Origin: Octopus vulgaris
Taxonomy: Eukaryota
Reading direction: 5' to 3'
Length of the DNA: 64,000 bases
Assembly (NCBI GenBank): GCA_951406725.2
Contig: OX597832.1
Span: forward strand, 17,980,001-18,044,000
Part shown: piece after piece, positions 21,972 through 59,873 of the stretch
Layout: each line of letters begins with the position of its first letter
How positions within the stretch are numbered: the stretch's first letter is position 1
Made by a program: the position numbers and the translations under genes
The notes under the pieces: generated by a model
What the model was told of the DNA's origin: nothing
Databases searched by the model: none
What the model saw: only the letters and a program-made list of their open reading frames with translations

Positions 21972-22121
21972 TTTGACCGCTGAAAACTACAACAACTTTT
22001 TTCATTTTCTCATATTCCTCTCTGTTGAAGAGCGTAGGCTCGAAACAAAATATTTTATCATTTTTCCATGTTTCTTGATCTTACACTAGTCTACGTCTTT
22101 TGTTTTTCTATAAATTTCAAT

Positions 22122-23709: not shown

Positions 23710-24235
23710 TTGGGCTGTCCGGAAAGTTCGTGCCGATTTATAGTAGCTTACCTTTCGACTTATTTTAGAACATGTTTGAGTCCATAAAATAGGAATTGAC
23801 TACAACTCCATTTAGAACACAGGTTAAGCTATTTTTTTGTGGAAGAAGGTTTATGTTCCTATAACCTGTGTTAATTCTGTCATTTTCGGCACTTGTTTGT
23901 TTTCTTCATCCGTAAAGGGAAAATGCCTCATAAGCAACCAAAGAAATATGCGCAGTTTACGGTATAGATTCTTTATCCGAAAGAACTGTACGGAAGTGGT
24001 TCGCAAGGTTCCCAGCTGGAGATTGTAGACTTATCGATAAAGAGCGATCAGGCAGACCATCCACTACAGATGATGACCAAATCAAGTCATTGACAACAAC
24101 CGGAGAATTGGCAGAAAGCCTCAACCTCTCAAAACCCGTCGTTCATGAGCACCTGGTAAAGCTTGGGTATTGGCAAGTATTTATTGACCTTTTTCTTCCC
24201 TTTAAAAATCGGCACGAATTTTCCGTACAACCCAA
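23710..24235 (+). mobile_element. Internally deleted mariner DNA transposon (526 bp)
   Basis: TIRs ttgggctgtccggaaagttcgtgccgattt / aaatcggcacgaattttccgtacaacccaa, with TA on both sides (23708-09 and 24236-37). Confidence 0.92.
23943..24170 (+). pseudogene. Mariner transposase N-terminal HTH remnant
   Basis: EICAVYGIDSLSERTVRKWFARFPAGDCRLIDKERSGRPSTTDDDQIKSL...TTGELAESLNLSKPVVHEHLVKLGY, with the WFxRF and RSGRP motifs. The catalytic domain is deleted. Confidence 0.9.
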
Positions 24236-24660
24236 TAGTAGCAAAATCTTCCCTAAGTATAATAAAGCATGTAAACTTTTCGCGTTCTGATTATATCGAA
24301 AGGATTTGTTTGAAGTACGTAGCTGAAATATTTGAAAAACTAGCTTTTGTATTAAGGACACATACATATAAACCTCTTAAGCTATAATTTCAAAAGTCAG
24401 ATATGCTTAAAGCAGTTAATTTTATAGAAGATAGAATATAATGTCGAATTTCGTATGATTAGTTAGGCTTCTTCTGTCTATGAGATCATCCGTTACAAAT
24501 GAATGTGAACATTTACGTTATTTGAAAAGAATCAATGATTCGCCGACCCGCATAATCGAGATTAGGAAACAGTTTTGGCTGTCGTTTAATCTTCTGTGAA
24601 AAGATTGTGAGCAGGTAGCATCGTTAGAAAAAACGTTTAGCAGTTTTTAACCCGTTTCTG

Positions 24661-50797: not shown

Positions 50798-52859
50798 ATC
50801 GTTGTTGTTGCTTTTGTTGTTCTTAAGCAAGCATAGTGACTTTGAATATTAAATGTCCGTAATTTGGGGTTTGTCCTTATTGAAAGTCTGTCAACTTATG
50901 TAGTTTCGCCTGTGACTAATCTGGATACATCTGTTGTTAAATACGGCATCTATTCTATAGTATTCTGTATCACCGACATCGAACTTTACAAATTATTAGG
51001 ACAAGAAACCTAAAAAAATCTAAAATCTGAAAAAAAAAAAAAAAAGTAAAGGAGGCATTCCCCCTTTTTGCTATTCTATTTGGTTAACATCATTGATATT
51101 ATGTCGATGATGTCAGTTATTTCCGCTTATCCAACAAATATAGTGTATCTTGCCAGTATTCATGTTTCCTTTTATACTTTAATATTTTCTGTAAATTTAT
51201 GTACAGTGTGGGCCAAACGCCACTTACGAAAACCTTTTTTTTGAAATCTGCAATATCTATTAAATGATTTTCATCTTCGTGCGTGACATTTGGCTCAACC
51301 TGTATTTTAAGATTAAACCATCCGCCTTAGGTCAAGACGGGAATGATACTCCATAATATCATATTTTGCTTCTTAGTTTACGAACTGACGATTTTCAAAA
51401 GCGCAGTCTATGTAAAGATTATTTAAATCCCGTTGTCCTTGTTAAGATTTGACAAATCCTGTATCAGCCCAAACATATATAACTTACACTCGAAAACTTA
51501 TGGGAAATGTTGCTATGAATTTAACATTTGCCCAATCACTTAACATCTGAAATCTATTGGACGCTATCCAGATCAACAACGTCATAGTTATAAGCCGCTT
51601 GATTAGCGACACTGCAAGAGGGCAAAAATCAGAATAATTTAATATTTCAAGACCAAAGACACCTTATTAATAAATTTCATCTGAGAGAGGAGAGGAAAAA
51701 TGACAAAACTAAATGGCATGAAAATAAAGATTATATCAATATTTAATTTCGTTCTTTCCGTACAGTGTGAACGTCTGAGAAGATTTCTCAAATCCTCGAT
51801 AATTTACCAAACATCGCCGTATTCTATTTCGTTTTCCATTACACAGCAAACAATAAAATAAACATGCATTTAAAGCATTAACCTATTCGTATTTGATATG
51901 TTGACGAACTAAGATAAATGATACAAATGTAATCCTCTGTAAAACATGCGCCTTAATACCAGTAGACAGTTATTGAATTTAAAATGTAAAACAAAGCCTC
52001 AGGTGTTATATATCGCGTCTAGAAAATTCACAGTGAGAAATTTCACCGTAAACGGACACTCACAGTGCGACACTTTCTTCGTAAGTACAATTATATCAAC
52101 ATGTTAAAAAAAGAAAACAAGGTTTTAGAAAAGCATTAAATAGGCAATTGACTGGGGACGCGTGACTTAGTGCTTAGGGTAATCAGATCACCATTTGATT
52201 CCCGGCGACACGTTCTCACGTTGCTCAAGTTTGCTGGCAACATTTTCCCGTCTTATATGCTGTTGTTACTGTTATACTGCTGTCGAAATTTACTTCCTTG
52301 TTTGTAAAATACCAAGTTTGTTTATAAAATGCTCTCGCATTCAAAAATCTATGATTATTTAACCTTAAATGTGAGGGTAATGGTCAGCGAGTGGTAAAGA
52401 TCTAGGCAGTGTAAATGTGGTGAACGGATCGAGTCTCGAAACCACTTGCTAAGGGATATCTTTCCGTCTTTTAAGGGTAAAATATCGAATCTTCCTGCTT
52501 TTATCACAGCTACACTGCGTTCGAAATTTAGTTTCTTCTGTGTAACATACCAAACACAATCGACGATTTCAAAGGATCTTTATAAAATGTTGTATTCCCA
52601 AAAAATATTGCTATGTAACTTTATAATTGGGGGTAATTGTCGTCAGCGGGACGTTTAGCTAAATGATAGCATACTCATCCAGTATCTGAGGGATACGGGT
52701 TTAAGTCCTGTGGCTGTCTGCTGGCAAATTCGCCCCGTCTTTCTGTTGTTTTCAATTTCGGACGCTATAGAAGCGTTCGAAATTTACTCACTTGCCTGTA
52801 AAATAACAACAACAACAATAATAATAAGAAGAAGAATAAAAAATAATATTCTCCCCTCT

Positions 52860-53068
52860 GTCCGGCATTCGACATGATCGATCGCTAGCCACTAAACGTT
52901 TTCCTTTTATTTCTATTTTCTCTTCCTGTTTATTTCTGTGTTCCTTTCTGTCGAAGAGCGTAGGCTCGAAACGTAAAAGATATTCTCTCTTCCCGAGCTT
53001 TTAACTAATACATCTGTTTGCTGTTTACACACCCGTCTTCGTCTTTTGATTTTTTTTCTAAATTCTCA

Positions 53069-53070
<2 letters not shown>
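52860..53070 (+). mobile_element. ~200-bp dispersed element with a minimal HHR motif, ending at (TA)n (PLE pseudo-LTR-like)
   Basis: Copies at 21972-22122 (+) and 54915-55112 (-). Confidence 0.75.
52944..52979 (+). ncRNA. Minimal type I hammerhead motif (U at position 6, extra A after A9)
   Basis: CTTT-CTGTCGAA-GAGC gtag GCTC-GAAACGT-A-AAAG. Stem I CTTT/AAAG, stem II 4 bp, palindromic ACGT stem III, GUA triplet. Confidence 0.6.
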
Positions 53071-53160
<90 letters not shown>

Positions 53161-53165
<5 letters not shown>

Positions 53166-53793
53166 TCAATTTAGGGTAGCAAAAAATTCAATAGAAATTT
53201 ATCGCCACCAGCGGTCTAGTGGGAAAGAGAAAATAGTCAAAGACTATATATATAAATTCAACAACAATTAAGGAATGGCCTTAATAGGCCATTCGGCCCA
53301 CTAGAAGAAGCAGCCAGGACTCAAACCGCTAAGTAGTAGTAATTCAGAAATTCTCTTTCCCACTAGACCGCTGGTAGCGATAAATTTCTATTGAATTTTT
53401 TGCTACCCTAAATTGATTAATTGATGATTTTCTGACTAATTCTGAGATTGAATCTGCAGTTTATATTTGCTGCTGATAAGTTGGCGCGAATACGATGGTT
53501 TTGAAAATTTTAGGGCACATATTCCGAGGGCATTGATACAGATGCCTCGTGTATATCCGTCTCTCCTGGTTTCTTTACCGATGAGGTGTAAACCTTTGGT
53601 AGATTGACTTAATTTAATTTAATTAAGCTGGTTTGCCATAAAAAATACCGAAACGATGCATCGTCTAAAGACGAATTAGGGTAAATGTTTTTAAATTTTC
53701 ATTTAATTTCTGAATTACTACTACTTAGCGGTTTGAGTCCTGGCTGCTTCTTCTAGTGGGCCGAATGGCCTATTAAGGCCATTCCTTAATTGT

Positions 53794-53796
<3 letters not shown>
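53161..53796 (+). mobile_element. Young HHR-bearing retroelement (PLE pseudo-LTR or non-LTR retrozyme-like) with an inverted 5' flank, inserted in (TA)n
   Basis: 53161-53231 is the reverse complement of 53351-53421 (1 mismatch). 53261-53352 is the reverse complement of 53705-53796 (identical). HHR inside. Confidence 0.8.
53572..53671 (+). ncRNA. Type I hammerhead ribozyme (U4C variant) with a long stem II
   Basis: TCTTTA-CCGATGA-GGTGT...ATACC-GAA-ACGATGCATCGT-C-TAAAGA. Stem I is 6 bp, stem III is a 12-nt perfect palindrome, and the GUC triplet predicts a cut after 53665. Confidence 0.75.
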
Positions 53797-53846
<50 letters not shown>

Positions 53847-53883
53847 CGGCGTACGTACACTTTGTTTCTTATATATATATATC

Positions 53884-53914
<31 letters not shown>

Positions 53915-54348: not shown

Positions 54349-54914
54349 AAATGGAAAGCTTTTGAAACCCATGTACTGAAGGATTTTTGCCATTATGTAT
54401 TCGGCTCACAGCAATTAGACATGAAAACATGACCGTAATAATATTTATGGCAATAAATGTAATAAAATATATAAAAAAAATAAATCAAAGACTGAGTATT
54501 TGTAATAACGTTAATAGCAAAAAACAATGATAGTAGTAGCAGTAATAATAATAGTAATAATAGTAGCAATAATGATATGTTATTGGTGATAATAATAATA
54601 GTTTTAAGCTTGTTTTCCTGCCTTTGTTTCGACGTTGTCAACTACATTAAAACAACCATTACCGATAGGTTAGACACCTCATCAATATCAAAAAAGTAAC
54701 CAGAATCACAAGCTTACACTAACGCAAACATAAGCACATCATTTACACACACATACACATACACACACACACGAATACACATAGGAGCACACGAATACAT
54801 GTATATATATATACATATATATATTTGTGTGTGTGAATGCAAGTCTTTATGTACGTATATATGCATATATGAATTCATTCAAACAAATACACACATACCT
54901 ATCTACATACATAG

Positions 54915-55112
54915 GGAGATCTCACGAAAAAATAATACAAAAGAGGAAGACAGGTGGTGTACAAAACAAACAGATGTATTAGTATAACGCTCAGGATTTG
55001 AAGAAGTATTTTACGTTTCGATCCTACGCTCTTCTATAGAAAGGGACACAGAAAAAAAGGAGTGAAACAAGGAGAGAAAAAACGTGTGTAGTGACTAGCG
55101 TTCTATCATGAT
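54915..55112 (-). mobile_element. Minus-strand copy of the 52860-53070 element with a degenerate HHR (55008-55043)
   Basis: Reverse complement reads ccctttctatagaagagcgtaggatcgaaacgtaaaa...ctaatacatctgtttg...gtcttcctcttttg. Confidence 0.75.
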
Positions 55113-58249: not shown

Positions 58250-59873
58250 CAGTGGCGGCCAAAATGATCAGAACGGCATTGTTTTCGCCAGAAAAGTAGG
58301 TATAATAAGTTTTTATCAACGTTGTTTTATGTTCTATAGTTTTCACAGAAAATAAATACGTTATTAATTGTTATTTTCTGAGATTTTGGTGTAATTTGAG
58401 TGGATAATACAAAAGTTATCGGTGATTTAGTAATTTACTGCAAAACCCATGCCGGCCAAAACTATCTGAACGGTTGAAAAAATAACAAAATAATCAAAAA
58501 TGACAGAGAATACTGGAATTATTTAATATTTAGTGTGAAGCCCTTTAGCTTCAATCACACTCTGACATCTTCGACTGCATGAGGAAATTAAATTCTCAAT
58601 TTCTTGCTGGGTGATCTTATTCCATTCTTCATGAAGGGCATTCCATAATTGCTAAGTTGTTTTAGGATTTCTGATTTTCGAATGTTCTCCTAGAATATTC
58701 CATACATTTTCAATAGGATTGAGATCTTGGCTTTGAGCAGGTCAATCCATAATAATAACCTTTTCAGCCTTGAGGAAGTTCATGACCACCTTAGCCTTGT
58801 GACATGGGGCATTGTCCTGCATGAATATAGGTGGTCGCTTAGTTGAATTTCTCAGCACAAGCAAGACATGATCTTTTACAAGTTGTTTATAAACTCCTGC
58901 ATTTACCTTTCCATGTAATCGCGCCAAAGAGCCCGCACCATCTCCAGATATCATTCCCCAAACCATGACACTTCCTCAACCGAATTTAACACTAGTCTTA
59001 AGGCATTTAAGCGACAATTTTTCACCTACTTTTCAACGAACGTACCAATCTGAGCCAAATAATATAAACTTAGATTCATCACTGAAATGCACCGTTGGCA
59101 ATTTTTTTTGAGACCACAACACATGTTCGGTTGCAAAGGTAAGACGACACTTTTTAATTTTGAGCTGATCAGTGGCTTCATTGCAGGTGATCTTGCTTGT
59201 AGGTTATGTTCAACTAAACGATGAGACACAGTTTTTCGAGATAACGTTTTCTTCAGTACAATGCTCATTTCCCGAGAAACAGCAGCAGCAGTTTTAAATC
59301 TGTCCTTTTTAACCAACTTTACCATAGCACGATCTTCTCTCTTGGTCGTTTTTCTTGGCCTACCTGTAGACCTTCTTGCTTCACATGAACCACAATCATT
59401 GAAGACCTTAAGAATACCATGAACAAGAATTTTTGACTTGTTAACAATCTTTGCAATAGACCAAATACTTAAATTATCCATCTTTCGAAGCTTAATAATC
59501 TGCTGACGAATTGGTAATGGAGTAAGTGGCATAATATTAACAAAGTACACTGCAGATATTCCTACTGATGTTTAGTAAACGAACCATCACGTAAACAAAT
59601 TCGAAACATTAAAGTTCGCTAGTTAATTATACTAAAACACGGAGTAAAAGCAACCGTTCTGATCATTTTGGCCACCATGGGTTTTGAGTAAATCACTAAA
59701 TCATCCATTAATTTTGTATTATATTCTCACATTACATCAAATTCTCAGACAAAAACAATTAATATTGTATTTATTGTGTGTGACAATTATACAATCTAAA
59801 ACAACTTTGATAAAAACTTATACCTACTTTTCTGGCGAAAACAATGCCGTTCTGAACATTTTGGCCGCAACTG
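58250..59873 (-). mobile_element. Tc1-family DNA transposon, IR/DR type, full length (1624 bp), inactive
   Basis: ~225-bp TIRs (58250-58476 and 59651-59873) starting CAGT, TA flanks, and the 20-bp repeat GGCCAAAATGATCAGAACGG at both ends of each TIR. Confidence 0.96.
58523..59532 (-). pseudogene. Tc1 DD34E transposase pseudogene
   Basis: MPLTPLPIRQQ...TGRPRKTT...FSDESKF...VMVWG...FMQDNAPCH-(34 residues D to E)-DLNPIENVW...IEAKGLHTKY*. Frameshift near 59160 and several in-frame stops, for example W to stop at 58742. Confidence 0.95.

Follow-up and report, generated by a model that had tools for sequence, protein, structure and literature searches.

Animal non-LTR retrozymes are reported to be non-coding and self-paired, to have less than 50% GC and to carry one type I hammerhead (PMC7229834; PMC7761336; bioRxiv 10.64898/2026.07.22.740005). 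Those treated in PMC7229834 occur in many copies and in head-to-tail order, lack a long reading frame and have units of 150-450 bp, and the preprint 10.64898/2026.07.22.740005 gives a range of 51-972 bp. Retrozymes have been proposed to be non-autonomous derivatives of Penelope-like elements (PLEs), and in these accounts the case for their mobilization by PLEs in animals has so far rested on co-occurrence and sequence relatedness (PMC7229834; bioRxiv 10.64898/2026.07.22.740005). Insertions of PLEs proper often carry an inverted, 5'-truncated copy and a tail of 30-40 bp at one end, and some PLEs prefer (TA)n targets (PMC8557442; PMC3846280). Furthermore, a purified PLE protein was reported to cut and extend both strands of AT-rich DNA, and to start inside the RNA at two sites near a stem-loop, using unprocessed RNA (PMC11167929).

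Here we describe a locus in Octopus vulgaris at which these two kinds of pattern meet. Within the 64-kb stretch of DNA that was analyzed (hereafter the window), an insert of 636 bases (53161-53796), comprising both arms of one hammerhead-bearing copy, lies in a TA run whose left (~53071-53160) and right (53797-53845) (TA)n tracts form part of the target site. The surrounding DNA in the window is repeat-rich and non-coding. The insert appears to add a member to an established kind of element, the animal non-LTR retrozyme, and both ingredients were already known. We suggest that it is probably a retrozyme copy that was inserted by a Penelope-like enzyme acting in trans, from an RNA that was likely linear and uncleaved.

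The insert consists of two arms joined head to head. The forward arm (53351-53796, plus strand, 446 nt) reads A'-C-B', is 29 nt shorter than one 475-nt unit and crosses the predicted hammerhead cut site. The other arm is inverted and 5'-truncated (53161-53352, minus strand, 192 nt) and reads B'-J-A'. Its B' (53261-53352) agrees with the reverse complement of 53705-53796 at every position (92/92); for two specified places, identity over 92 nt has a computed chance of about 1e-51. Its A' (53161-53231, with 53161 as the outer 3' end of the arm) agrees with the reverse complement of 53351-53421 at 70 of 71 positions, the single mismatch, at 53376, turning an A-U pair into G-U in a hairpin predicted by folding within A' (53373-53407, plus strand). 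J, between them, spans 29 nt (53232-53260, minus strand), and the forward arm stops short of it. At the inversion point the arms share TT (53351-53352), an overlap of 2 nt. The inverted flank with an identical B', a single mismatch in A' and a spacer of about 29 nt, like the TT overlap and the (TA)n on both sides, had been claimed in an earlier note made from the sequence of this DNA, and each anatomical feature in that description is real. Both outer ends of the insert are element 3' ends that directly abut (TA)n; the flanking host DNA is unduplicated, any target-site duplication being hidden and unreadable inside the repeat. Within the window, no second copy of the unit was found by blastn, and J has no 12-mer match elsewhere, TA-rich 12-mers being skipped.

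Over the 163 sites that the arms have in common there is one difference (95% interval 0.02-3.4%). Such near-identity fits a young insertion, in agreement with the recent date that had been claimed, and arm-to-arm conversion could lower the divergence too. The minus-strand B'-J-A' of the inverted arm is predicted to form a single structured domain (z -5.65; 0/200 shuffles as stable), in which a 9-bp helix between B' and A' closes over J. In addition, the 3' end of each arm lies close behind a predicted hairpin: that in A' ends 14 nt before the 3' end of the inverted arm, and a 9-bp hairpin in B' (53763-53784, plus strand) ends 12 nt before the 3' end of the forward arm. J also carries a 9-nt AT run (53245-53253) that starts 7 nt past the forward arm's 3' end and could pair with a nicked (TA)n target; the forward arm is without the intervening 7 nt.

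Closing the unit gives 475 nt with 35% GC, slightly longer than the retrozymes of PMC7229834 and inside the range of bioRxiv 10.64898/2026.07.22.740005. Its longest stop-free frame is 51 aa on the plus strand and 60 aa on the minus strand, and the unit contains no reverse transcriptase (RT) or GIY-YIG open reading frame. Folded as a circle, the unit is more stable than expected (z -4.9; 0/60 shuffles as stable). The octopus unit thus shows the retrozyme features of a non-coding, highly self-paired monomer with GC below 50%.

A motif scan of the window returned three hammerhead candidates, of which a single one, at 53578, possesses both stem I and stem III. This is a predicted type I hammerhead on the plus strand (53564-53681), based on a constrained fold and on paired changes in relatives; the earlier note had named a hammerhead and given it no coordinates. 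In the constrained fold, stem I pairs 53564-53577 with 53666-53681. The core CCGAUGA (53578-53584) departs from the consensus by a U-to-C change at what we take to be position U4 of the hammerhead numbering. Stem II, of 5 bp (53585-53589 with 53645-53649), encloses a 55-nt insert, and GAAA (53650-53653) follows on its 3' side. Stem III is a perfect palindrome of 12 nt (53653-53664), and the cut is predicted after C53665. Three stems and a core are therefore in place, with the core altered to U4C. Rfam gave no match at gathering score in the 64-kb window, and none of its 29 weak matches in 52800-53900 is a hammerhead. The hammerhead fold lies 3.3-5.0 kcal/mol above the minimum-energy fold, the unconstrained fold not being a hammerhead; since the active fold stands above the energy minimum, folding alone is no proof of a hammerhead.

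Changes in relatives, seen in contigs of public sequencing runs (here X1, X2, X4 and X10), are more informative. G53655A and C53662T alter the two partners of a single stem III base pair; their depths are equal in X2 and X10 but not in X1 or X4. Two other palindromic versions of stem III appear in loose ends of X1 (8 contigs) and X4 (5 contigs). T53646C, which accounts for all or nearly all depth in 4/4 runs, turns a G-U pair of stem II in the octopus copy into G-C. G53586A and T53587C match a changed 3' strand in loose ends, these being unphased and not on one contig. From this covariation of its stems, the hammerhead looks selected. The C at position 4 seems to be common to most contigs aligned there: the consensus T at 53579 has 0 of 2944 depth units in X1, 0 of 1374 in X2, 134 of 3121 in X4 and 10 of 42 in X10. 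Coverage of the core is limited to few contigs, and the letter may be different in other subfamilies. As a naturally occurring variant, U4C is reported to lower activity in vitro, yet to permit viroid infectivity (PMC3088659).

The octopus hammerhead resembles the minimal hammerheads of PLEs in its type I fold and in a palindromic helix III that could pair in a dimer, but with a helix III of 4 bp and an extended helix I it could fold as a monomer (compared with the account in PMC4209133). The U4C string is absent from the main text of PMC4209133, and the variant core string from one of its two supplementary files. The octopus copy also differs from animal retrozymes in its U4C core, in the 55-nt insert of stem II and in the presence of one predicted hammerhead at the locus rather than an array. 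Li et al. 2026 reserve the term "active" for loci where two successive units each carry a complete hammerhead; with its one hammerhead, the insert would count as a monomer-type derivative by their definition.

Evidence that the insert belongs to a larger family comes from these same contigs. Among 24 listed runs, 20 contain part of the stretch (9 studies), and the contigs of four were aligned at a threshold of at least 85% to 53232-53704, a target that holds each part of the unit once; about 76% of X1 and about 80% of X2 were read. Of 2650 contig pieces 32 were viewed, together with 24 of the 226 loose ends and 40 of the 50 variant rows. The family data are thus contigs; no listed run is on record as RNA, and X10, which is guessed to be RNA, was left unused for expression. 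In the four runs, 1066, 768, 618 and 108 contigs aligned to the target.

The joint that leads from J into A' (53232-53351), a search for which the earlier note had suggested, was found in 3, 3, 4 and 1 contigs, that is, in 4/4 runs. J-like loose ends also precede 53351 in 15 contigs of X1 and 10 of X2, with letters that differ from those of the octopus locus. Other pieces carry the same order further. A contig of X2 (record 17) runs from B' into J with 11 differences in 83 nt and continues for 34 further letters, the length of the side of the J-A' joint in X2. A contig of X10 (record 11) passes from B' to A' and goes on for 33 nt to 53454 in C; it shows 8 differences in 101 nt, and the stretch that separates B' from A' is not given. 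Copies that are 8-13% diverged therefore hold B'-J-A' and B'-(J-like)-A'-C within single contigs. The remaining steps are bridged as well: X1 record 4 and X2 record 21 link A' to C, X10 record 16 and X4 record 32 cross the cut site, and loose ends of X1 (10 contigs) and X2 (4 contigs) connect C with B'. Taken together, other copies complete the loop A'-C-hammerhead-B'-J-A', which shows more than one unit for the family as a whole. The bridging pieces may stem from different subfamilies, and among the pieces viewed, which come from short contigs, none holds two whole units. The contigs thus lend support, at the family level, to the claimed head-to-tail monomer of about 475 nt that carries a single hammerhead, and the family can be described as a many-copy, protein-free unit of this kind, as judged from its sequence.

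Contigs identical to the octopus copy over most of B' have a depth of 808-876 in X1, X2 and X4, and the octopus B' type makes up about 8% of X1 depth there (808.5 of 10039.6 at 53296). The letters of the octopus copy at 53518, 53646 and 53672 are shared by almost no aligned contig. Depth in X1 varies several-hundred-fold along the unit and is highest over A'; contig depth can neither rank parts nor give copy number, and neither a map of 3' ends nor a copy number was drawn from it. Outside these runs, metagenome contigs gave 0 matches to a 24-nt pattern and 3 to a 20-nt pattern, prokaryote genomes gave 1 match and viral contigs gave 0; the matches span 23-24 nt only and are attributed to chance. 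Joints and loose ends of X2, X4 and X10 (53480-53650) point to subfamilies that share A' and the 3' side of the hammerhead and differ in the middle of C and in stem II.

These data change the way in which the two arms should be read. Because B'-J-A' folds as one domain and J is continuous in other copies, J is ordinary internal sequence of the family rather than a special end-to-start joint, and the "start" and "end" of the forward arm are properties of one insertion, not ends of the unit. The claim that the inverted flank spans the element's own end-to-start junction thus stands insofar as J does join B' to A'; it falls insofar as J is internal and the forward arm is simply 5'-truncated. A retrozyme circle would be ligated at the hammerhead cut site, not at J. 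Measured from that site, the inverted arm sits within one cut-to-cut monomer (positions 40-231 after the cut), and the forward arm begins 131 nt after the cut and extends 315 nt beyond it upstream. Since the forward arm crosses the cut site, its template must have been an uncleaved multimer or a circle, unless a precise template jump took place. A template reading A'-C-B'-J-A', 546 nt or 1.15 units long, is the shortest that is enough for both arms, whether supplied by one RNA molecule or by two.

The geometry of the insert points to a Penelope-type enzyme. As in endonuclease-bearing PLE insertions, an inverted, 5'-truncated arm is joined head to head with the other through a short overlap, one arm is extended at its 3' end, the target is (TA)n or AT-rich, and the 3' ends lie downstream of a type I hammerhead and beside stem-loops (PMC8557442; PMC3846280; PMC11167929, as described there). 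The PLE-type inverted partial arm claimed earlier thus matches the published pattern. The octopus insert differs from PLE insertions in that it has no RT or GIY-YIG frame and in the length of the 3' extension of one arm: in place of a tail of 30-40 nt on one end it measures 100 nt, made up of J and A', and this is the distance separating the two 3' ends. In a unit this short, the extension wraps round to the start of the forward arm. The 3' ends, 12 and 14 nt behind predicted hairpins, fit internal start sites in this one locus. In 145 of 175 candidate frames of the 64-kb window, no RT or GIY-YIG match was found, so these frames show no partner PLE; the insert behaves as a PLE passenger and is not an autonomous PLE. 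A comparable relationship is reported for non-autonomous Chlamys PLEs, MRC1 among them, whose insertions are multicopy and head-to-tail and which are moved by PLEs; they differ in being green-algal, in that most subclades are without canonical hammerheads, and in that the partner is known by 3' similarity (PMC8557442).

We propose that the insertion proceeded as follows. A multi-unit source would be transcribed, with the U4C core retarding cleavage enough for precursors to persist. An endonuclease of the GIY-YIG type, provided in trans, would nick both strands of the TA run. One nick would prime cDNA synthesis inside the RNA at the end of B', giving 446 nt that run through the hammerhead site, and the other would prime where the next A' ends, 100 nt further in the 3' direction, giving a cDNA of 192 nt. 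The two cDNA ends would then join through the 2-nt overlap, and repair would complete the head-to-head insert.

The same element and the same Penelope-type insertion could also have used a 475-nt circular RNA, formed when a multimer is cut by its hammerheads and the monomer is ligated, as in a rolling-circle model; reverse transcription would then have passed through the ligated site. In favor of this, the predicted cut site lies within the forward arm, the closed unit has a stable circular fold, the hammerhead stems covary as if selected, and the retrozymes of coral, mussel and axolotl are described as accumulating as circles, which are the proposed templates (PMC7229834). However, neither arm is longer than one unit, U4C is reported to weaken cleavage (PMC3088659), the PLE protein used unprocessed RNA in vitro (PMC11167929), and two tandem units explain the one-site difference in A' with no new mutation. 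We therefore regard a circular template as possible but unlikely. Of the earlier proposal of a "multimer or circle" template, multimer-type continuity stands, and the circle is not favored, as a linear RNA of 546 nt explains the locus equally well. One mismatch in A' and none in B', at one locus, are too little to tell linear from circular.

It would be tempting to go further and read such insertions as a direct record of Penelope-type two-strand priming on a hammerhead-made RNA circle, with starts 100 nt apart, each 12-14 nt behind a hairpin, and with a family-wide U4C core tuned down so that the circle survives as a template. This stronger proposal is doubtful at present. If it were true, it would provide insertion-level proof of the proposed retrozyme life cycle.

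The inverted duplication might instead have arisen at the DNA level, from a resident copy of at least 1.15 units through template switching or fold-back repair, in which case the inversion would say nothing about an RNA template. Such events are favored by long (TA)n tracts flanking the insert, by the 2-nt overlap where the arms meet and by strong hairpins, and high arm identity would follow as well. Yet the outer ends are element 3' ends that abut (TA)n with the host flank unduplicated, each 12-14 nt behind a hairpin, and the arrangement is the one published for PLEs (PMC8557442; PMC3846280). A rearrangement of this kind thus seems quite improbable.

A further concern is whether the inversion exists in the genome at all, or reflects a chimeric join of two family copies or a fold-back read. 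The family is high in copy number and microsatellite lies on both flanks; at the inversion point (53352/53353), no piece with letters on both sides was found among the 32 of 2650 viewed, and no listed run contains half of the words of the stretch (at most 0.47 of 58). PLE inverted structures are also reported to trouble assemblies (PMC8557442). However, B' is identical in both arms although its type makes up only about 8% of X1 depth, so that a random chimera is unlikely, and a fold-back read of the forward arm could not supply J. We consider an artefact highly improbable, and the family and its head-to-tail order stand in any case, even if the inversion were one. The word content of at most 0.47 fits a private or polymorphic insertion; runs from related species would fit too, and we do not count it as evidence of polymorphism.

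Inversion-like joints were also seen in other copies (53350-53677, 53319-53408 and 53262-53640), each in one contig and with a short side of 23-30 letters; they were set aside as ambiguous and not counted. In the first of these, the forward part would begin near the cut site, and because the end of the inverted B' resembles 53434-53447, that joint may be an internal deletion. A loose-end consensus of X1 behind 53352 (10 contigs, agreement 0.8; window 53687-53704) runs into (TA)n and suggests another copy whose 5' boundary abuts (TA)n about 22 nt after the predicted cut, although its far end may rest on few contigs.

Finally, the insert could be a hammerhead-bearing SINE or satellite that was moved by an enzyme other than that of a PLE, for example through LINE twin priming, or it could be the terminal part of an autonomous PLE and not a free 475-nt unit. 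In LINEs, twin priming likewise yields 5' inversions with short overlaps, and the candidate frames searched in the window revealed no RT or GIY-YIG partner. Against another mover, there is no poly(A) or fixed tail, and both 3' ends lie inside the unit; against an end piece, A' is followed by C, which is not a reading frame, in several diverged copies, and no plus-strand frame longer than 51 aa follows the hammerhead. Either origin appears very unlikely to us. A DIRS-type element was also considered and rejected. In DIRS elements, an internal region complementary to the joined ends lies between terminal inverted repeats; here the stretch complementary to the end-to-start order is the terminal arm itself, and the order fits neither orientation. 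A passenger of a Penelope-like enzyme, copied from RNA that was likely uncleaved and linear, thus remains our preferred reading, and a single locus settles neither the form of the template nor the mover.

Other repeats occur in the window. The left (TA)n tract is directly adjoined by an older repeat that is unrelated to the insert (52873-53070, plus strand) and that carries, near 52953, a minimal hammerhead motif of the PLE type in decayed form; a copy of this repeat with 73% identity lies inverted 1.9 kb downstream (54900-55110, minus strand). The position of this older hammerhead repeat beside the left (TA)n suggests that the young element probably landed in a TA run next to a PLE-like remnant. 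A third motif is found near 22027 (plus strand). Three diverged copies of a SINE-like repeat of about 240-260 nt stand in a row at 52150-52810, with spacings of 238 and 256 nt, and ARAGORN found no tRNA gene in the 64-kb window. In the 145 of 175 candidate frames searched, two mariner/Tc1-type transposase fragments passed the Pfam cut-offs (23934-24287, plus strand, and 58745-59571, minus strand; HTH_48, HTH_Tnp_Tc3_2 and a weak DDE_3).

Literature searches found no description of this family or of inverted retrozyme arms, and supplements outside their coverage may bear on this. Term searches revealed no inverted arms on retrozyme copies in the main text of bioRxiv 10.64898/2026.07.22.740005 or in the text of the Schistosoma W-element paper (PMC8490949), and a search combining retrozymes, inversion, target-primed insertion and Penelope returned one work, on PLEs proper. 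The searches showed no title reporting retrozymes in octopus or cephalopods, the supplement of PMC7229834 with further invertebrate retrozymes lying outside their coverage, and the repeat annotation of Octopus vulgaris (PMC13282606) has no occurrence of hammerhead or ribozyme. The family or the core variant may already stand in the supplements of PMC7229834, PMC4209133 or the bioRxiv preprint, or in PMC5785218 (dimeric PLE hammerhead variants).

A retrozyme copy with a PLE-type inverted arm provides structural support of another kind for the mobilization of animal retrozymes by PLEs. Missed by Rfam, the covarying predicted hammerhead, with its long stem II and the U4C core that most aligned contigs share, lends itself to simple work at the bench. 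Moreover, a young family with many copies would allow the starts of reverse transcription to be mapped and the choice between circles and uncleaved multimers as template to be addressed.
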